Source: Eubacteriales bacterium (GTDB lineage: Bacteria > Bacillota > Clostridia > Oscillospirales > CAG-272). Taken from it: 64,000 bases of DNA. The translations under genes and the position numbers were made by a program. Below, in pieces: positions 4,610 through 56,422 of this stretch; within the stretch, counting starts at the first letter, position 1; every line of letters starts with the position of its first letter. Location of the stretch: NCBI GenBank assembly GCA_045586845.1, contig JAZNBB010000058.1, forward strand, positions 6,532 to 70,531, in the 5' to 3' direction. The notes beneath the pieces are model-generated. The model saw only the letters and a list, made by a program, of their open reading frames with translations, was not told the origin of the DNA and ran no database searches.

Positions 4610-5437
4610 TTATCCCTCTGCCAGATCAATGATCTGCGTACCGTTGATCATAAGATAATGCTTTTTGACGCAGCGCAGGGAAGAGATCCAGCCGCGCACG
4701 ATCACTGTGCGGAAATGCCCCGTGTCGTAGCCCTCGGGCCCCATGTTATCCCACAGCCATGAAGGTGTGGGCCACAGGCAATACGTGGGGCGAATGACCT
4801 CATAGCATTCCTTTTCAACGCCGCCCTGACCGTGATGCGCCATTTGTACGTAGTCAGCACGCAACAGGGAATGATCCACAGTGCCGATCAGCTCCTTGCC
4901 TCCGTCCGGTTCAAGGTCGCCAAGGAACAGAATACTCTTTCCGTCAGCTTCAAAGCGGTAAACGGTAGAGGAATTGTTGATATATTTGAAAGCAGTGTTA
5001 TAGGTACGCAGTACGCGTACGGTCACGTTGCCGCTGTCAAAGGTGTACAGGTCGCCCTCAGTCGCGGTCACGATGGGGACCTGCCGCGTCGCTATCGCCT
5101 CGCGGAACTGCTGCAGCCATACCTCGGTGGGGTTATGGCTCTGCTTTGGTTCCCAGCGCACGAGATATTCATCGGGCGGAAAGTTGAAATACACCGCCTC
5201 CACCGTAATATCGGGATGCTTTTGCAGCATTGTGATAAAGCATCCAAAGTGGTCGTCGTGAAAATGAGTCAAAAACCAAGCAGTGACGTGTCCGCCCAGC
5301 CCCTTCAGATACTCATAAAGATAAGGTTCTTCGCTCTCAAAGCCGCCGTCAACCACAAGCAACGTGCCGTTTGACTCAACAACAAATGAGGTATTAATAG
5401 TGTCCGTCACCGATTTGAGAAAATGTAATTTCGCCAT
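4610..5437 (-). CDS. MBL-fold metallo-hydrolase
   Basis: Has the HFHDDHFG (HxHxDH) motif. I place the start at MAKLHFL (ATG 5437), which follows a GGAGGAGG RBS. The 5473 start would overlap the upstream gene. Confidence 0.75.
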   Translation of the reverse strand: MAKLHFLKSVTDTINTSFVVESNGTLLVVDGGFESEEPYLYEYLKGLGGHVTAWFLTHFHDDHFGCFITMLQKHPDITVEAVYFNFPPDEYLVRWEPKQSHNPTEVWLQQFREAIATRQVPIVTATEGDLYTFDSGNVTVRVLRTYNTAFKYINNSSTVYRFEADGKSILFLGDLEPDGGKELIGTVDHSLLRADYVQMAHHGQGGVEKECYEVIRPTYCLWPTPSWLWDNMGPEGYDTGHFRTVIVRGWISSLRCVKKHYLMINGTQIIDLAEG

Positions 5438-13175: not shown

Positions 13176-13204
13176 GTAGGGACCGGCGTCCTCGACGGTC
13201 CTAC
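13176..13204. repeat. GTAG-headed palindromic unit (type A, loop GCGTCCTCGA)
   Basis: GTAGGGACCG-GCGTCCTCGA-CGGTCCTAC, located between the GNAT-like gene and the carrier protein gene. Confidence 0.7.
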
Positions 13205-13495: not shown

Positions 13496-13636
13496 CTTTT
13501 AAAAAATGAATATCACAACTTGTAGGGAGCTACATCGCGCCGCGTTTTTGAAATATTCCCGAAAAATCTTGAGTGCTCTTGATTTTACGGAAAATATTTG
13601 ATATAATAGCATACAACGACAAGAAAGGGGAGCGCA

Positions 13637-14785: not shown

Positions 14786-14805
14786 AAGCGCAGCTTTTTA
14801 CAACT

Positions 14806-15004
14806 GCGGCTGTGCCGCAATATCATATTTGTAGGGACAGGCGTCCTCGACTGTCCGTTTCTGCAATACCACTATGACCACAGGTCACAATATCACTTTG
14901 TTATCCGTAGGGGCGACCATCGGTCGTCCGCTATCGCGGCGGCAGCAAGCCACCGCCCTACGACGTGGCTCGATGCGTACGGGCGATCATTGATCGCCCG
15001 CCCC
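14806..15004. repeat. array of short palindromic units (GTAG-headed and hairpin+AATATCA[CT] types)
   Basis: The units, in order:
- GCGGC-tgt-GCCGC followed by AATATCAT, 14806-14826.
- GTAGGGACAG-GCGTCCTCGA-CTGTCC, 14831-14856.
- AATACCAC, 14865-14872.
- TGACC-aca-GGTCA followed by CAATATCAC, 14875-14896.
- GTAGGGGCGACC-atc-GGTCGTCC, 14907-14933.
- A reverse-orientation unit ending CACCGCCCTAC, 14937-14960.
- GTACGGGCGATCA-t-TGATCGCCC, 14978-15004. Confidence 0.75.
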
Positions 15005-27671: not shown

Positions 27672-30011
27672 ATGAACATGAAAAGAAATGCATTCATATT
27701 ATTTGCTCTGCTATTGGCAATCACTATGCTGTTTGCTGCGTGCGATCAAGGCGAAGGTCAAGAAGAAATTACCAATGAAGTGATTGTTGGTGGTGACATC
27801 GTTACCGAGGAAGATGCCACAACGGATAATGGCGAAAACGCTGAGCCTGATGCGACAACTGAAGATCCCAACCAGCCGCACGAGCACGCATTTGGCGAGT
27901 GGACAACGGTCAAGGCGGCAACCTGCACGCAGGCAGGTAAGCAAGAGCGCATTTGTTCATGTGGCAAAAAAGAAAAAATGACTCTTGATGCACTCGGTCA
28001 TGCCGAAGTGATTGATGCGGCGGTAGAACCGACGTGCTCTGAGCAGGGATTAACAGAAGGCAAACATTGCGCTAATTGTGATACGGTATTTGTGGCGCAG
28101 GAGGTAATGCCTGCAACGGGAGAGCATGTGTATGTTAATGAAGTATGTCAGGGTTGCTCGGCGAAACTGCAATACAGTGAAGGCTTGGTGTTTGTATCAA
28201 ATGGTGATGGCACTTGTTACGTCAGTGATATTGGTTCCTGTACAGATACGGATATTGTGATTCCGAAACGTTCTCCTCTTGGCGATAGCGTGACGAGCAT
28301 TGGATCTTTGGCGTTCGATAACTGCGTTGGAATGGTAAGCATCACTATCCCTGATAGCGTGACAAGTATTGGCACTCAAGCATTCTACAATTGTACCGGC
28401 TTGAAGCGTATAACTATTCCGGATAGTGTGACAAGCATTGGCTGGAGTGCATTTTCTGACTGTACCGGTTTGACGCGTATTACCATTCCGGATAGCGTGG
28501 TAGACATTAATACCGGTGCATTCTCCAACTGCACCGGCTTAACGAGCGCTATCATTGGCGACAGCGTGATAAGTATTGGTATTGATGCATTCTGGCATTG
28601 CCGCAGCTTGACGAGCATTACGATTCCGGATAGCGTGACGAGCATTGGCAATAGCGCGTTCGGTGGCTGCACCGGCTTGATGAGTATTACCATTGGTGAT
28701 AGCGTGACGAGCATTGGCAATAGAGCGTTCGAAGGATGCACCGGTTTGACGCGTATTACCATTCCGGATGGTGTGACGAGCATAGGATATTCTGCGTTCG
28801 AAGGATGCACCGGCTTGACGAGCATTACTATTCCGGATAGCGTAACGAGCATTGCTTGTCCGGATAGCATGACAATTGTTGGCGATGGGGTGTTCTCAGG
28901 TTGCACCAGGTTGACAAGCTTAATTGTTTCGGAAGGAAACACTACTTATCACAGCGCAGGGAATTGCATTATTGAAACGGAAAGCAAAACCTTGGTTGCC
29001 GGATGCAATACGAGCATTATTCCTGCGGACGGTAGTGTGACAAGCATTGGTGCATTTGCGTTCTCCGGCTGCGAGGGTTTGACAAGTGTTACCATTCCGG
29101 ATGGCGTGACAAGCATTGGCATTAAAGCGTTCTCTATCTGCAAAGGCTTGACAAGTGTTACCATTCCGGATAGTGTGACAAGTATTGATACTCGTGCGTT
29201 CGATTTCTGCACAGGATTGACGAGCATTGCCATTCCGGATAGTGTGACAAGCCTTGGAGCATTTGTGTTCGAAGGGAGTTATGACCTCATTCGAAAAGAG
29301 CAGGGCGTTAGCTATGTGGATGGTTGGGTGGTGGATTGCGACTCTAATGTTACAACAGTTGACTTAACTGGCACGAGAGGCATAGCTGCATCAGCGTTTT
29401 ATGGGTGCAACTTGACGAGTATTGCTATTCCGGATAGTGTGATAAGCATTGGTGATAGGGCGTTTGAACGTTGTACAGGCATGACGAGTGTTACCATTGG
29501 AAACGGTGTGACAATGATTGGCGAGTATGCGTTCTCCGACTGTACCGAATTGACGAGTGTTACCATTGGAAACGGTGTGACAATGATTGGCAAGTATGCG
29601 TTCTCCGACTGTACCGGCTTGACGAACATCACGATTTCGGATAGCGTGGCAAGCATTGGTGATTCAGCGTTCAAGGGGTGCACAAATATGACGAGTATTA
29701 CTATTCCGGGCAATGTGACAAGTATCGGTGATTGGGCGTTTAAAGGTTGCACAAGTATGACGAGTGCTACCATTGGAAACGGTGTGACAATGATTGGCAA
29801 GTTTGCGTTCTCCGACTGTACCGGCTTGACGAACATCACGATTTCGGATAGCGTGACAAACATTGGATTTGCTGCGTTTTCTGACTGCACCGCCTTGACC
29901 GACGTGTATTTCACCGGTACCGAGCAAGAATGGGCTGCAATTGAGCTTGGAGACTTCAACGACGCTCTTTCAACCGCCACCATCCACTACAACTACGTTC
30001 CCGAAGAATAA
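27672..30011 (+). CDS. surface lipoprotein with BspA-type leucine-rich repeats
   Basis: A signal peptide with lipobox LFAAC is followed by a Cys-rich segment. Then come about 25 repeats of about 23 aa of the form ITIPDSVTSIGxxAFxxCTGLTS. Confidence 0.8.
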   Translation: MNMKRNAFILFALLLAITMLFAACDQGEGQEEITNEVIVGGDIVTEEDATTDNGENAEPDATTEDPNQPHEHAFGEWTTVKAATCTQAGKQERICSCGKKEKMTLDALGHAEVIDAAVEPTCSEQGLTEGKHCANCDTVFVAQEVMPATGEHVYVNEVCQGCSAKLQYSEGLVFVSNGDGTCYVSDIGSCTDTDIVIPKRSPLGDSVTSIGSLAFDNCVGMVSITIPDSVTSIGTQAFYNCTGLKRITIPDSVTSIGWSAFSDCTGLTRITIPDSVVDINTGAFSNCTGLTSAIIGDSVISIGIDAFWHCRSLTSITIPDSVTSIGNSAFGGCTGLMSITIGDSVTSIGNRAFEGCTGLTRITIPDGVTSIGYSAFEGCTGLTSITIPDSVTSIACPDSMTIVGDGVFSGCTRLTSLIVSEGNTTYHSAGNCIIETESKTLVAGCNTSIIPADGSVTSIGAFAFSGCEGLTSVTIPDGVTSIGIKAFSICKGLTSVTIPDSVTSIDTRAFDFCTGLTSIAIPDSVTSLGAFVFEGSYDLIRKEQGVSYVDGWVVDCDSNVTTVDLTGTRGIAASAFYGCNLTSIAIPDSVISIGDRAFERCTGMTSVTIGNGVTMIGEYAFSDCTELTSVTIGNGVTMIGKYAFSDCTGLTNITISDSVASIGDSAFKGCTNMTSITIPGNVTSIGDWAFKGCTSMTSATIGNGVTMIGKFAFSDCTGLTNITISDSVTNIGFAAFSDCTALTDVYFTGTEQEWAAIELGDFNDALSTATIHYNYVPEE
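29482..29856 (+). repeat. near-identical in-frame DNA repeats inside the LRR gene (69-bp tandem; 207-bp displaced copy)
   Basis: Three copies starting at 29482, 29551 and 29758 share tgacgagtg(t/c)taccattggaaacggtgtgacaatgattggc(a/g)agt(a/t)tgcgttctccgactgtacc. Copies 2 and 3 continue identically through ggcttgacgaacatcacgatttcggatagcgtg. Confidence 0.8.
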
Positions 30012-30130: not shown

Positions 30131-30154
30131 CGGGCGATCACAGATCGCCCCTAC
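30131..30154. repeat. GTAG-headed palindromic unit (type B), reverse orientation
   Basis: CGGGCGATCACAGATCGCCCCTAC is the exact reverse complement of the unit at 30205-30228. Confidence 0.8.
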
Positions 30155-33697: not shown

Positions 33698-34243
33698 TCA
33701 AATCTGCGCCTTGAGCGTATGTATCTGGTCGCGGAGCAGCGCCGCGGTCTCAAAATCCTCGGCAAGCACCGCCTGCTTCATTTGTTCACGGAGCAGTGCG
33801 GCACGAGCCTCTCTTTCACGACGCAGCCTGAAATTACGCGGCATGCGTCCGGGGTAGGGCGTGCCCTCGGGCAGTGCGTGCAATGAGCCCGATATTTCGT
33901 CTCGAAAGGTCTTGTAGCAAGCAGCGCATCCCACGCTGCCGCTCTCAGCAATACCCGCCAAGGTCGAGGAGCAAACGGGGCAGGTGCGCACGGCGGCAAT
34001 GTTGTGCGGTACGGTAATACCGCAAAGATTGCCAAACATGGCGCTTTCACTGCACCCGAACGCAGAGGACGCCGAGGGAATGCGCACATCCTCCAGTTCA
34101 CCTGTACGGCGCATAGCCTCTGCACAGTCGGCACAAAGTGAGCAGGAGCGCGTTTTTCCGCCTAAGTTTTCGTTGTAGAAGACCGTAGCCTTTTTCTTTT
34201 TACATTTTTCACATAGCATAAAAGAGAGTCCTTTCTTTTTCAT
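33698..34243 (-). CDS. mcsA: McsA-like activator of McsB (zinc fingers plus UVR motif)
   Basis: Has repeated CxxC pairs (CEKC, CSLCADC, CPVC, CAAC) and a C-terminal UVR-like AEDFETAALLRDQI. The start is uncertain: either ATG 34243 or the MLCEKC ATG 24 nt downstream. Confidence 0.7.
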   Translation of the reverse strand: MKKKGLSFMLCEKCKKKKATVFYNENLGGKTRSCSLCADCAEAMRRTGELEDVRIPSASSAFGCSESAMFGNLCGITVPHNIAAVRTCPVCSSTLAGIAESGSVGCAACYKTFRDEISGSLHALPEGTPYPGRMPRNFRLRREREARAALLREQMKQAVLAEDFETAALLRDQIHTLKAQI

Positions 34244-34307: not shown

Positions 34308-34847
34308 TTATTCTGCTTCGCTTCCAAAGGGCAGGGCGTTGAAGCGGTCTGCAATGGCGTTCCAGGTCAGAATGTCCACAAGACCGTTTTGCTCCATGCC
34401 GAGATAGCCCTGCATTTGGCGCACAGCCTCTGCGGTGGTGGCATCGTACCTTCCCGTCACCTCAGGCGGCGTGAGCAGATAGAGCAGCGTCAGCTCTCCA
34501 AGCATGTATTGCAATACAGCGACGTCAATGCCCACTGCACCGAGGTCGAGATATCCTCCGGGCGGTGTTTGCAAAAACAGGGAAACCGGTGTGGGCGGTG
34601 AATACAGCGCAAGCGATGCCAGGTAATCGGCGTAAAGCCTTTCCCAGGTAACACGGTCTGCCGTGCCGGTCACAGGAAGACCTGCCGTACGTTGATAGTC
34701 GGACAACGCATTACGCGTGGCAGACTCAAAAATGCCATCTACCGGCACTTGACCGATGCCCTCGGTATGATAAGCAAGCTGTCGCAGATACCGTTGCAGA
34801 TTGGCAACGGCGGGCGAATAATTGGGATGATTGCTTTGATCGGGCAT
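34308..34847 (-). CDS. peptidoglycan-binding domain (PG_binding_1) protein
   Basis: Contains two copies of the LQ.YL......G.....DG.F...T..A...FQ...GL...G......TW pattern. I place the start at MPDQSNH, which follows RBS aaaggag. Confidence 0.65.
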   Translation of the reverse strand: MPDQSNHPNYSPAVANLQRYLRQLAYHTEGIGQVPVDGIFESATRNALSDYQRTAGLPVTGTADRVTWERLYADYLASLALYSPPTPVSLFLQTPPGGYLDLGAVGIDVAVLQYMLGELTLLYLLTPPEVTGRYDATTAEAVRQMQGYLGMEQNGLVDILTWNAIADRFNALPFGSEAE

Positions 34848-34934
34848 AATTGCTCCTTTCATACATTCAAAGCTGATAAATTATAAGATATTATGAAGAA
34901 TTGAAATTTGCCATAAAGCAAATTTTTCCGCAAC

Positions 34935-35031
34935 GTTCCGCCCGTGGCGGAACATATCACTCGCGCGTAGCGCGAATATCACTTTTGCGATAGCAAAAAT
35001 ATCACATATCGCCTACGGCGAAATATATCAC
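34935..35031. repeat. four tandem units of variable short hairpin followed by ATATCAC
   Basis: The four hairpins are GTTCCGC-ccgtg-GCGGAAC, CGCGC-gta-GCGCG, TTTTGC-gata-GCAAAA and TCGCC-tac-GGCGA. Each is followed by (A)ATATCAC, at 34954, 34976, 34999 and 35025, a spacing of 22-26 bp. Confidence 0.8.
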
Positions 35032-35032
35032 T

Positions 35033-35057
35033 GCAATGAAAGCATGGCTTTCATTGC
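35033..35057 (-). terminator. stem-loop overlapping the stop codon of the upstream PG-binding gene
   Basis: GCAATGAAAGC-atg-GCTTTCATTGC forms a perfect 11-bp stem that includes the TGA stop at 35051-35053 (minus strand). Confidence 0.5.
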
Positions 35058-36463
35058 TCACCAACCGCAAACCCGGGGTACTGTCCGTCCTGCAAGGAAT
35101 CCGAAGCGATCAGATCGGCGTACAGATCGGCAATGGCTGTCCAGGCAATCGCATCCACCACACCCGAAGCGGGTAAGCCGAATTGCGTGCGGAATGCGCG
35201 TACCGCTTGCTCGGTCTGATTGCCGAAATACCCCGTGGGTGTGACAGAGGGAATGGACGGATAGGTTTGCGAAATACGGTTCAGATACTCCTGCAAAACG
35301 CGCACAGAAGGCGAGTCCGCCCCCTGTCGCAGTACCACGCCCGGGAACGGTATCGCACCGCTGACCGTGTATTCCTCGGGAACGGTGCCCACAATGCCCA
35401 GATACGCGCGGTACATGGTCTCCCAGGTCTCGGGACCTACGATACCGTCGGGCACAAGACCAAAGGTGGTCTGCAGATCTGTTACGGCTGCTTGCGTGGC
35501 TGGACCGAACGAGCCGTCTATGGTTACGGGGGGAATGGTGTTGTAGTAGGCGGCAAGAAAGCTCAGGTAGTATTGCAGACTCAGCACACCCGTGCCGCTG
35601 TCGCCCTCGCGCAGCACCTCGGGAAATTGCTTGGTGATCTCTTCAAGTCGAATACCCTCGGAGTCAAGCTCGTTAAGACGCTTGACACCTGCGTAAATTG
35701 CCTGAATGGCAAACCAGGTGGCGCGTCCCACAATACCGTCTGGTGTGAGGTTGAAGATCTCCTGAAAAGCACGTACCGCCGCCTCTGTATCCTCCACAAA
35801 AATACCATCGGTCTGCACGATCTTGGGAATGGCAGGGTAGTTTTGCGCAATACGGTTCAGGCGGATCTGGACAGTGCGCACGTCGTCTCCCACATTGCCC
35901 ACGCGCAGGGGAAAATCGGGGGGCGAGATGTCCAAGCCCTCGACGGGTACGTCGGTGACAATATCAATGTCGTCGCCGTAATAAGTAGTCAGAATTTCGT
36001 AAGGAGAGAGGCCGCGGTTGGCAAGATCGACCGAGCCCCATTGCGAAAGTCCATTGCAGGTGACCTCAACGCCGTCGCAATAAGCGGCGAACAGAGGCTC
36101 TATACTGCCTTGCCTGCGAATGTAGCTGTCAAATATCTCTCCCGCGATCTGGCGGATGTTATCAAAAATGTCGCGGCCGTTGACAAAGGATTGGTCAATG
36201 GTCGTGGAGTTGGTAATGTCAAAATCATAGCCGCGTGAGCGGTAGTATTGGGTGTAAATACGGTTGAGCGCAAACGAGATCTGCGCGTATATATTGGCGC
36301 GTATGGCGTTTTCGGGCCATGTGGGGTAAATCTCGGAGGATGCTACGTTGGTCACGTAGTCAAGAAAGGGCAGTGTTACGTTTTGCGCAGGGGTGTTCGG
36401 TGCACCGAGATGTACCGTAATGGTTTCGGGTATGACGGGTGTGTCGGGCATAAGCACCTCCAT
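35051..36463 (-). CDS. peptidoglycan-binding protein with N-terminal SleC-like (putative cortex-lytic/PG hydrolase-like) domain
   Basis: Has four PG_binding_1-like repeats (...DGI.G..T..A...FQ..F.L..DG.VG..TW...). The N-terminal roughly 190 aa end in CDG..V.C.GLSQWGS. An alternative start is ATG 36451, which follows GGAGG. Confidence 0.55.
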   Translation of the reverse strand: MEVLMPDTPVIPETITVHLGAPNTPAQNVTLPFLDYVTNVASSEIYPTWPENAIRANIYAQISFALNRIYTQYYRSRGYDFDITNSTTIDQSFVNGRDIFDNIRQIAGEIFDSYIRRQGSIEPLFAAYCDGVEVTCNGLSQWGSVDLANRGLSPYEILTTYYGDDIDIVTDVPVEGLDISPPDFPLRVGNVGDDVRTVQIRLNRIAQNYPAIPKIVQTDGIFVEDTEAAVRAFQEIFNLTPDGIVGRATWFAIQAIYAGVKRLNELDSEGIRLEEITKQFPEVLREGDSGTGVLSLQYYLSFLAAYYNTIPPVTIDGSFGPATQAAVTDLQTTFGLVPDGIVGPETWETMYRAYLGIVGTVPEEYTVSGAIPFPGVVLRQGADSPSVRVLQEYLNRISQTYPSIPSVTPTGYFGNQTEQAVRAFRTQFGLPASGVVDAIAWTAIADLYADLIASDSLQDGQYPGFAVGEQ

Positions 36464-40856: not shown

Positions 40857-40948
40857 GCTTGAAAATCCTCCTGTCAGTCTATGTAATACGTTTATTATAT
40901 CACATCCACTCTCGGAATGCAAGAGCAAAATGCCTTTTTATCAACCAA

Positions 40949-55992: not shown

Positions 55993-56069
55993 GGGCTATT
56001 AGCTCAGTTGGTCAGAGCTACCGGCTCATAACCGGTTGGTCCGGGGTTCGAGTCCCTGATAGCCCACCA
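55993..56069 (+). tRNA. tRNA with anticodon CAT (elongator Met or lysidine-modified Ile2), CCA encoded
   Basis: The sequence is GGGCTATTAGCTCAGTTGGTCAGAGCTACCGGCTCATAACCGGTTGGTCCGGGGTTCGAGTCCCTGATAGCCCACCA. G1-C72 are paired, so it is not an initiator. The anticodon arm CCGGCTCATAACCGG resembles tRNA-Ile2 genes, but I cannot decide from sequence alone. Confidence 0.9.
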
Positions 56070-56072
56070 AAA

Positions 56073-56110
56073 AGAGCAAGGGGGTGCTTGTGCACCCCCT
56101 TGCTCTTTTT
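56073..56110 (+). terminator. rho-independent terminator after the tRNA
   Basis: AGAGCAAGGGGGTGC-ttg-TGCACCCCCTTGCTCT followed by TTTT. Confidence 0.8.
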
Positions 56111-56120
56111 GGTGTACTTT

Positions 56121-56422
56121 CCCGACTCAGAACCCCGCACGCGCGGCTTTGCCGCTCGTGCAAGGTTTGCGCCGGAAAAGTGAAGAAATATCACGACTAT
56201 TGGCGCAAACATGGGTTCTGAGTCCCTGGTGTCCCATTCAGACGCCTATCCCAATTCGCCCCACGCGCGGCTTTGCCGCTCGTGCAAGGTTTGCGCCGGA
56301 AAAGTAAACGGTAAGGGCGTGCGATTGCGCAAATGTGCAAGCGCGATGCGCTTGCGATGTTCTGAATCCCTGGTGTCCCATTCAGACGACTATCCCGATT
56401 CACCCGCACGCGCGGCTTTGCC
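56121..56422. repeat. tandem repeat (about 144 bp period) containing tRNA 3'-end-like blocks
   Basis: Block A, GTTCTGA(G/A)TCCCTGGTGTCCCATTCAGACG(C/A)CTATCCC(A/G)ATTC, occurs at 56215 and 56359. Block B, C(G)CACGCGCGGCTTTGCCGCTCGTGCAAGGTTTGCGCCGGAAAAGT, occurs at 56133 and 56259, with a truncated copy at 56401-56422. Confidence 0.8.

Follow-up and report, generated by a model that had tools for sequence, protein, structure and literature searches.

In the 64,000-nucleotide stretch of Eubacteriales bacterium DNA analyzed here (contig JAZNBB010000058.1; the window, in what follows), six hairpins stand in series at 34904-35057, the middle ones set apart by four exact ATATCAC words, which begin at 34954, 34976, 34999 and 35025 on the plus strand and read GTGATAT on the minus strand, that of the neighboring genes. 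Judged by its sequence, this array belongs to the known Gut-1 family as a single-arm member slightly below the threshold: it matches Rfam Gut-1 (RF01706) from 35033 to 34949 on the minus strand over the full model (positions 1-77), with 45.0 bits against a curated gathering cut-off of 50 and with E = 1e-7 in 501 nt or 1.3e-5 in the whole window, the latter value computed against all 4227 Rfam families. The 2010 description of Gut-1 drew on 43 human-gut metagenome sequences and gave neither organism nor function (Weinberg et al., 2010, PMC2864571), and the motif was rated a likely RNA by the Rfam curators on the basis of covariation. We propose, with roughly even confidence, that the array is a mobile, recombination-prone DNA repeat resembling miniature inverted-repeat transposable elements (MITEs) or repetitive extragenic palindromic (REP) sequences, co-transcribed at this locus as a passive structured spacer.

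An earlier note on this DNA had described four units, each of a variable hairpin and ATATCAC, and these are confirmed by both the word count and the stem statistics. ATATCAC occurs 21 times in the window (7.05 +/- 2.6 expected; none of 100 shuffles reached 21), and the stems of the four unit hairpins are perfect and centred, at 8, 6, 6 and 5 bp; their loops measure 3-4 nt and their sequences are unrelated to each other. The probability that a random window segment of the same length makes a centred perfect stem is 0.0063 for at least 5 bp, 0.0014 for at least 6 bp and 7e-5 for at least 8 bp; hence, four such stems in a row would arise by chance with a probability of ~1e-12. The four hairpins are real, but the series comprises six, with an 11-bp long hairpin (LH) at 35033-35057 and an AT-rich hairpin of 8 bp at 34904-34925. 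The heptamers are 15-19 bp apart, giving a unit period of 22-26 bp. For the hairpin stretch, the predicted RNA fold of the minus strand reaches -68.4 kcal/mol (z = -5.5) and the predicted DNA fold of the plus strand -42.8 kcal/mol (z = -7.7). Read along the gene strand, the features are as follows.

35033-35057, minus strand: LH, GCAATGAAAGC cat GCTTTCATTGC, 11 bp
35025-35031, minus strand: heptamer 1, GTGATAT
35009-35021, minus strand: hairpin of unit 1, TCGCC gta GGCGA, 5 bp (plus-strand loop tac), extending with a bulge to ATATTTCGCC/GGCGATAT
34999-35005, minus strand: heptamer 2, GTGATAT
34983-34998, minus strand: hairpin of unit 2, TTTTGC tatc GCAAAA, 6 bp (plus-strand loop gata)
34976-34982, minus strand: heptamer 3, GTGATAT
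34961-34975, minus strand: hairpin of unit 3, TCGCGC tac GCGCGA, 6 bp (plus-strand loop gta)
34954-34960, minus strand: heptamer 4, GTGATAT
34935-34953, minus strand: hairpin of unit 4, GTTCCGCC acg GGCGGAAC, 8 bp (plus-strand loop cgt)
34928-34934, minus strand: conserved closing word GTTGCGG (GTTGYGG or GTTGAGG in other single-arm arrays)
34904-34925, minus strand: AT-rich hairpin, AAATTTGC tttatg GCAAATTT, 8 bp
34880-34885, minus strand: perfect TATAAT hexamer within the insertion described below, upstream of the ribosome-binding site (RBS) and without a good -35 element

The outer arm of the LH is the 3' end of the upstream gene (gag caa TGA aag), encoding a protein of 470 amino acids (aa), so that its stop codon is overlapped, and the inner arm lies within the insertion. 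Copies of the same subfamily (loci L101 and L183-L192, in our numbering) carry the counterpart GCAATGAAGCTC..GAGCTTCATTGC at the end of another host gene. As to whether the LH derives from the target, the signs are mixed: GCAATGAA is common to the LH and the L101 subfamily, yet the outer arm is host coding sequence at both loci. Unit 1 is the equivalent of the conserved hairpin TCGCC-n4-GGCGA, which comes first in Gut-1 left arms, and the AT-rich hairpin has a counterpart in the L101 group (GATTTTCTTCGC..GCGAAGAAAATC). What had been taken for the terminator hairpin of the upstream gene lacks a U-tract, overlaps the stop codon of the 470-aa gene and was not called as a terminator; no terminator-like site was found on either strand in 34700-35200, each hairpin leading into GUGAUAU without a U-tract. 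The promoter scan called no minus-strand promoter-like site at the TATAAT of the insertion.

Both flanking genes lie on the minus strand. The upstream one (35051-36463) encodes the 470-aa protein, which has PG_binding_1 domains; the downstream one also encodes a PG_binding_1 protein, and mcsA, mcsB and clpC come next. Comparison with relatives places the true start of the downstream gene at the ATG at 34847, after an AAGGAG RBS, while the mechanical open reading frame (ORF) call puts it at 34862, at an ATG inside ATGAAAGGAG. The array, in the Gut-1 sense on the coding strand, stands between these co-oriented genes, and it was found in none of 53 orthologous loci of the 470-aa gene, including L162 (92% protein identity) and L156 (83%). 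In these two closest relatives the junction reads GGTGAG-nnn-TGAAAGGAG-n6-ATG, i.e., stop codon, RBS and start of the next gene are directly joined. Relative to them, the window has ~191 extra bp at the stop/RBS junction, with ATGAAAG on both borders.

35048-35054, minus strand: left-border copy of the direct repeat ATGAAAG (CTTTCAT on the plus strand), from alignment with the empty sites L162 and L156
34864-35047, minus strand: insertion body, 184 bp (191 bp including one repeat copy), missing from all orthologous loci
34857-34863, minus strand: right-border copy of ATGAAAG, overlapping the AAGGAG RBS of the downstream gene

The insert consists of the LH, whose inner arm is a third, inverted copy of ATGAAAG, the four heptamer-hairpin units, GTTGCGG, the AT-rich hairpin and an A+T-rich tail. 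Since both genes are joined from stop codon through RBS to ATG in the closest relatives, without the array, a role as gene-specific regulator is not supported, and the array is not a conserved regulator of the peptidoglycan-binding genes. L101 was also tried as an orthologous locus and rejected, as tblastn gave no match to the window proteins and its neighbors are an oxidoreductase and AcnX; it holds the same element subfamily at another site.

The array is the single full one of its type in the window, but many members of the family exist elsewhere. When one genome per species was searched for three ATATCAC words at spacings of 14-21 nt, at least 119 loci were obtained, where we estimate ~17 to be expected by chance. 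A strict test (two perfect hairpins) was passed by 83 of them, ~17 are unrelated tandem repeats or chance matches, and ~100 are true arrays, almost all from metagenome-assembled genomes (MAGs) labelled Acutalibacteraceae, Oscillospiraceae, Eubacteriales or Clostridia, of human and ruminant guts. Several copies occur per MAG, in intergenic DNA beside unrelated genes. Among 18 MAG loci, Gut-1 gave 12 hits of 51-59 bits, so that arrays with the same GTGATAT heptamer do exceed the cut-off. The plasmid collection matched neither the window insert nor a full element, and the phage collection gave only two partial matches (76-82% identity) to a double-arm left arm, at 5071-5174 of MT835815.1 and 34067-34154 of MT835476.1, both unannotated "Bacteriophage sp." contigs from human faeces. 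The earlier note had named absence of the array from relatives together with a lack of other copies as grounds for giving it up: the orthologous sites are indeed empty, whereas other copies are plentiful. Of the three guesses offered there, a second REP-like family comes closest, given the ~100 loci listed, several copies per genome, the intergenic position and the insertion polymorphism here and at groEL; it falls short in that the linker is conserved while the palindromes vary, and in that Gut-1 went unrecognised.

Most of the loci have a double-arm form, in which a long hairpin, AGTTWTATTCGCC, a left arm, the centre GGCGAATAnAA and a right arm follow one another. The left arm, composed of GTGATAT-type heptamers and hairpins, is what the Gut-1 model describes, and the right arm comprises 3-4 ATATCAC-hairpin units and is Gut-1 on the opposite strand (L009), so that the heptamer has inverted orientation in the two arms. 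Both the terminator hairpin upstream and the inverted ATATCAC arm can already be seen in the original Gut-1 alignment (PMC2864571), the latter in a flank left unannotated there. Over 10-11 nt, the left end is complementary to the centre ~86 nt away, and the end cores of the elements are CATAAGGAAGT / CTTAACGGAG. The single-arm form, which ends in GTTGYGG and an AT-rich hairpin, is represented by the window copy, L101, L114, L024, L118 and L029. Across the family the heptamer spacing is 20-27 bp. The left arms of full elements begin directly behind a terminator-like hairpin with a U-rich tract, and they lie just downstream of co-oriented genes or tRNAs more often than not so (33 vs. 16); many right arms lie upstream of a co-directional promoter, and arrays are often directly 5' of sigma-70-like promoters, e.g., ATATCACtcTTGCTT-n17-TATAAT. 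We also observed near-identical A-tract/stem/T-tract terminators between different tRNA genes and a Gut-1 left arm in different MAGs (L013/L049; L019/L044/L103; L050/L062; L009/L028), which suggests that the terminator travels along with the element.

Presence/absence polymorphism distinguishes the window from its 53 orthologous loci, L017 from L173-L178, and L186 from L101/L183-L192. The groEL terminator of L017, AAAAAAGGCGTATCGC...GCGATACGCTTTTTTT, is interrupted by an element of 782 bp, which comprises a long hairpin, the two arms, a promoter, a PF05635 gene and a terminator; the empty site was recovered in L173-L178 (98% identical GroEL), where the groEL terminator is intact and the next gene lies 100 bp downstream. 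Moreover, 11 of 54 double-arm elements have on their downstream side an exact reverse-complement copy (9-12 nt) of the host stem that precedes them, at a distance of 300-370 bp in cargo-free copies and 755-1208 bp in larger ones. Thus, each of these 11 elements lies inside a split A-tract/stem...stem/T-tract terminator. Full elements measure 336-394 bp without cargo, and the larger inserts 782-1241 bp. Imperfect inverted ends of ~20 nt were found in 7 of the 11 complete double-arm elements, above the 95th percentile of shuffled controls. Direct repeats border the window insert (ATGAAAG) and, imperfectly, the L101 group (AATGAAG/AATGGAAAG), and no consistent duplication was seen at the split-terminator insertions. 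Hairpin-targeting insertion has a precedent in Firmicutes, IS1272/TnSha1 (PMC4923244).

The proteins neighboring the 119 loci share no common family besides a PF05635 (23S rRNA-intervening sequence protein, 23S_rRNA_IVP) cargo ORF in five of them. It lies directly behind the right arm and promoter in L017, L005, L006, L072 and L075, and by eye also in L076 and L078; in L017 and L075 it is inside the insertion borders. Otherwise, PF05635 proteins are known from 23S rRNA genes, in insertions within hairpin loops. Five further cargo-like ORFs without a Pfam hit (L096, L064, L090, L011 and L004; 99-157 aa, unrelated) stand downstream of a double-arm element, behind a sigma-70-like promoter and a conserved ~60-nt leader (ggtatgggctt.gccc..gcctttgtaatacaaaggcgaaac.ggcgataa), and in L064 and L090 the inverted end cores are 764-802 bp apart. 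From their layout, these promoter-leader-ORF segments look like cargo cassettes.

Turnover is also much faster in the arrays than in the DNA around them. From a second single-arm site, which lies between an oxidoreductase gene and acnX, 11 alleles were recovered, and identities between pairs of them were as follows.

L183 vs. L185: coding flank (300 nt downstream) 99.3%, LH 100%, right module 97%, array 57%
L101 vs. L183: coding flank (300 nt downstream) 94.7%, LH 100%, right module 97%, array 65%

Among these alleles all heptamers of one array change jointly between GTGATAT and GTGAAAT, identical hairpin types recur at differing positions, and L186 retains only the long hairpin and one heptamer. 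Near-identical strains differ by paired changes, such as ttgcgc/gcgcaa to ttgccc/gggcaa. Another array (L107, 2557-2952) has upwards of 20 ATATCAC-hairpin units and is made up of a 68-bp block, with three hairpin types, that occurs at least six times; hence, arrays are able to expand by block duplication.

The composition of the stems bears on whether DNA or RNA is the level at which they are maintained. Spacer lengths vary too much in their pattern among the arrays to give a clean seed alignment for a covariance model, so the pair statistics were computed directly. Among 291 distinct spacers, 210 are perfect hairpins, with 1612 Watson-Crick and 136 other pairs, and among the ~1750 stem pairs G·T and A·C are equally frequent (23 each), with no wobble asymmetry. 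Since RNA stems normally tolerate wobble on one strand only, this equality points to the DNA level.

Taken together, the array would be one arm of a Gut-1-type element, i.e., of small non-coding, hairpin-packed repeats that spread among the intergenic regions of gut Clostridia and recombine there, and a ~191-bp copy would have entered precisely where the stop codon of the 470-aa gene meets the RBS of the gene after it. The heptamer, which is GTGATAT here and GTGAAAT in other copies, may be the word on which the family's putative enzyme or recombination machinery acts, and the hairpins would matter as folds of single-stranded DNA. Their stems could be kept perfect at the DNA level by palindrome-correcting template switching, along with a swapping of units at the heptamers from one copy to another. 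The insert would mainly be a passenger of the host, predicted to be co-transcribed and to place six stable stem-loops on the minus strand between two formerly coupled genes; possibly it alters mRNA decay or uncouples the expression of the two genes. An effect on RNA stability, which the earlier note had also considered, is thus possible as a consequence of the array, given that it lies on the coding strand between two formerly adjacent genes.

More tentatively, and with clearly less than even confidence, we suggest that Gut-1 is not a small RNA gene at all but the internal array of an undescribed class of hairpin-targeting mobile elements of gut Clostridia. Such elements would insert into the loops of terminator hairpins or beside hairpins completed with host sequence, would bring their own terminator and promoter modules and sometimes a small cargo (23S_rRNA_IVP), and would gain, lose and swap their ~22-bp units of heptamer and palindrome as cassettes at the heptamer. 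By analogy, such a hypervariable non-coding array would be formally reminiscent of repeat-spacer arrays.

Several observations weigh against the reading as a mobile DNA repeat. No transposase or other linked enzyme was seen in the 119 8-kb loci, where no copy brackets a transposase-sized ORF and only small cargo ORFs occur. The inverted match at the ends of the window copy is only 7 bp (CTTTCAT/ATGAAAG), and its 7-bp flanking repeat is a single case, which could be microhomology or an att-like core. The loops are strand-biased: on the ATATCAC strand we counted cGAAg 28, cGCAg 18, cGTAg 13, cAAAg 13, GCAA 11 and GTAA 8 times. cGNAg triloops are classic, very stable DNA mini-hairpins and GNRA loops classic RNA tetraloops; the bias therefore indicates that one strand matters more, and leaves DNA versus RNA undecided. 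Finally, the curators rated Gut-1 a likely RNA on covariation, and two further features, long-range covariation and a contrast between right arms, would also fit selection on a transcript. In the long-range stem P1, between the left end and the centre of double-arm elements, a covarying position is A-T in 24, T-A in 21, C-G in 14 and otherwise in 6 of 65 cases. Right arms facing a convergent gene, i.e., in sense for that gene's transcript, are perfect hairpins in 60 of 67 cases (90%) and those before a co-directional gene in 46 of 73 (63%), a contrast confounded by subfamily, the cargo-carrying copies all being in the "same" class.

On these grounds we hold it possible, although rather doubtful, that Gut-1 is a functional RNA whose mobility is secondary. 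Its hairpins would present single-stranded GUGAUAU/GUGAAAU (or AUAUCAC) to a protein or RNA, in the manner of the CsrB/RsmZ sponges, or would serve as a 3'-end or intercistronic stabiliser-insulator. The match to an Rfam family rated as RNA, the coding-strand sense between co-oriented genes in the window, the preference of left arms for the 3' side of co-oriented genes and tRNAs, the covarying P1, the right-arm contrast and the strong predicted fold of the minus strand all agree with this. It is opposed by the stem pairs, in which G·U does not exceed A·C, by the subfamily confounding of the right-arm contrast, and by the position of the left arm of full elements behind a terminator-like hairpin and U-rich tract. 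One arm, moreover, is always antisense, many right arms stand upstream of a co-directional promoter, an array has been replaced wholesale between near-identical strains at one locus, and the element is missing from the orthologous site in the closest relatives.

It is improbable, in our view, that the heptamers are duplex-DNA sites for a repeat-reading protein, either ribbon-helix-helix like omega of pSM19035 or of the nucleoid or transposase type, as at the ends of Tn7, Mu and Tn552, which would control or insulate the downstream gene. Such a role would suit the invariant heptamer among variable spacers, the 22-26 bp period of about two helical turns, the frequent position of arrays directly upstream of sigma-70-like promoters and the inversion of the word between the two arms of full elements. 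TATCACT of the array also fits the WATCACW heptads of omega, a resemblance that is lexical only. Duplex binding, however, gives no reason for the spacers being palindromic throughout, and with the family-wide spacing of 20-27 bp helical phasing is lost. There is no gene-specific association, and no candidate regulator gene was found near the window array. The proposal that the array holds protein-binding sites in the promoter of the 34847 gene is likewise not supported as far as that gene is concerned, the same promoter region lacking the array in close relatives, where the two genes are joined.

A local accident without any family, be it one unit tandemly duplicated and then drifted or a run of ordinary terminators, would suit a window with only one full array, placed between two genes where terminators are expected, but it is vanishingly improbable in view of four hairpins with no common sequence, their joint chance, the lack of U-tracts and terminator calls, and the same architecture at ~100 loci in many species among the matches listed. 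Further candidates were rejected, namely a CRISPR-like array (here the spacers are palindromic and the repeat has just 7 nt), integron attC sites (for which the units are not long enough), type III toxin-antitoxin RNA repeats (units there are identical to each other), a series of intrinsic terminators (U-tracts are missing) and a CtsR operator belonging to mcsA-mcsB-clpC close by (whose word differs).

Elsewhere in the window, the design recurs as two remnant units.

14799-14826, plus strand: CAAC TGCGGC tgt GCCGCA ATATCAT, equal to the first unit of the L114 array; a GTAG-REP follows 4 nt on
14876-14896, plus strand: TGACC aca GGTCA c AATATCAC, then a GTAG-REP

The second corresponds to its first description; the first, noted at 14805-14826, ends in ATATCAT rather than ATATCAC. 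Both belong to a mosaic between convergent genes (14786-14957), in which we found a terminator, CAAC-TGCGGCtgtGCCGCA-ATATCAT (designed as the start of L114), two GTAG-REPs, the second unit and the GATC-centred palindrome CGGGCGATCattGATCGCCCG, which recurs at 30132 and 30209. The ATATCAC reported inside the tandem repeat at 56198 is really at 56188, in one repeat copy only and with no adjacent hairpin, and looks like chance. Other ATATCAC/GTGATAT words, at 40897, 41370, 43055, 56665 and 36918, are intergenic, have no adjoining hairpin and look like parts of -10 regions. The window also contains a separate REP family of GTAGGG(R) plus hairpin (13 GTAGGGR words vs. 6.2 expected), at 13176, 13522, 14831, 14907, 22230, 30148 (minus strand), 30205, 56472, 62094 and 62165. 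Copies of it follow ATATCA[CT] at 13510, 14820 and 14890 by 4-10 nt, as if REPs had inserted into or beside Gut-1-like units. Additionally, a 23-bp perfect hairpin (56065-56114) stands immediately 3' of a tRNA gene, and an imperfect ~120-bp repeat behind it (56120-56420) was not reported by Tandem Repeats Finder; repeats with a 69-bp period (28344-29810) lie in a 779-aa ORF (27672-30011), which probably encodes a repeat-domain surface protein.

Listed by Rfam since 2010 as an orphan RNA of the "human gut only", Gut-1 is now placed in MAGs labelled Acutalibacteraceae, Oscillospiraceae and other Clostridia, from the guts of humans and ruminants, where it behaves as an insertion that is able to interrupt operons and terminators and to bring along promoters, terminators and small genes. 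If our reading is confirmed, a catalogued "RNA" would become a mobile DNA repeat, a second example of insertion aimed at terminator hairpins would be documented in Firmicutes, and the arrays would provide a hypervariable strain-typing marker for abundant, poorly cultured gut bacteria. With Gut-1 as published, the window copy shares at least three short GC-rich hairpins parted by the heptamer (G/A)UGA(A/U)AU, the full-length model match and the origin in gut Clostridia; it differs in having GUGAUAU where the consensus is GUGAAAU, and in consisting of one arm, a host-overlapping LH and the closing word GTTGCGG, without the double-arm form and the GGCGAATAnAA centre. The published description includes neither function and organism nor mobility and variability.

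The operators of omega (pSM19035) are contiguous 5'-WATCACW-3' heptads at plasmid promoters, without hairpin spacers; they resemble the array in having a 7-bp word with ATCAC in direct and inverted orientation, but in the array the heptads are 15-19 bp apart. We know of no cognate transposase for Gut-1-type elements. IS1397 is a further hairpin-targeting insertion sequence besides the one compared below. REP, BIME and REPIN sequences of proteobacteria are likewise short extragenic palindromes in many copies, often in inverted pairs or mosaics and located after genes; they can stabilise upstream mRNA and are targets of some insertion sequences. In REPs, however, the palindromes are conserved and the linkers variable, whereas here the 7-nt linker is invariant, the palindromes vary and the head is GTGATAT rather than GTAG, the true GTAG-REPs of this genome forming a family separate from the array. 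MITEs (Correia, RUP, ERIC) and hairpin-targeting insertion sequences (IS1272/TnSha1, PMC4923244) are similarly non-coding, a few hundred bp long and polymorphic in presence/absence, and have inverted ends like 7 of the 11 complete double-arm elements; they, too, insert into terminators or other hairpins and can bring promoters or terminators. The inverted ends of the window copy are at most 7 bp, and the internal heptamer-hairpin arrays with their rapid turnover of units are without a described counterpart among these elements. Moreover, TnSha1 removes part of the target stem, whereas Gut-1-type elements keep both stem halves.

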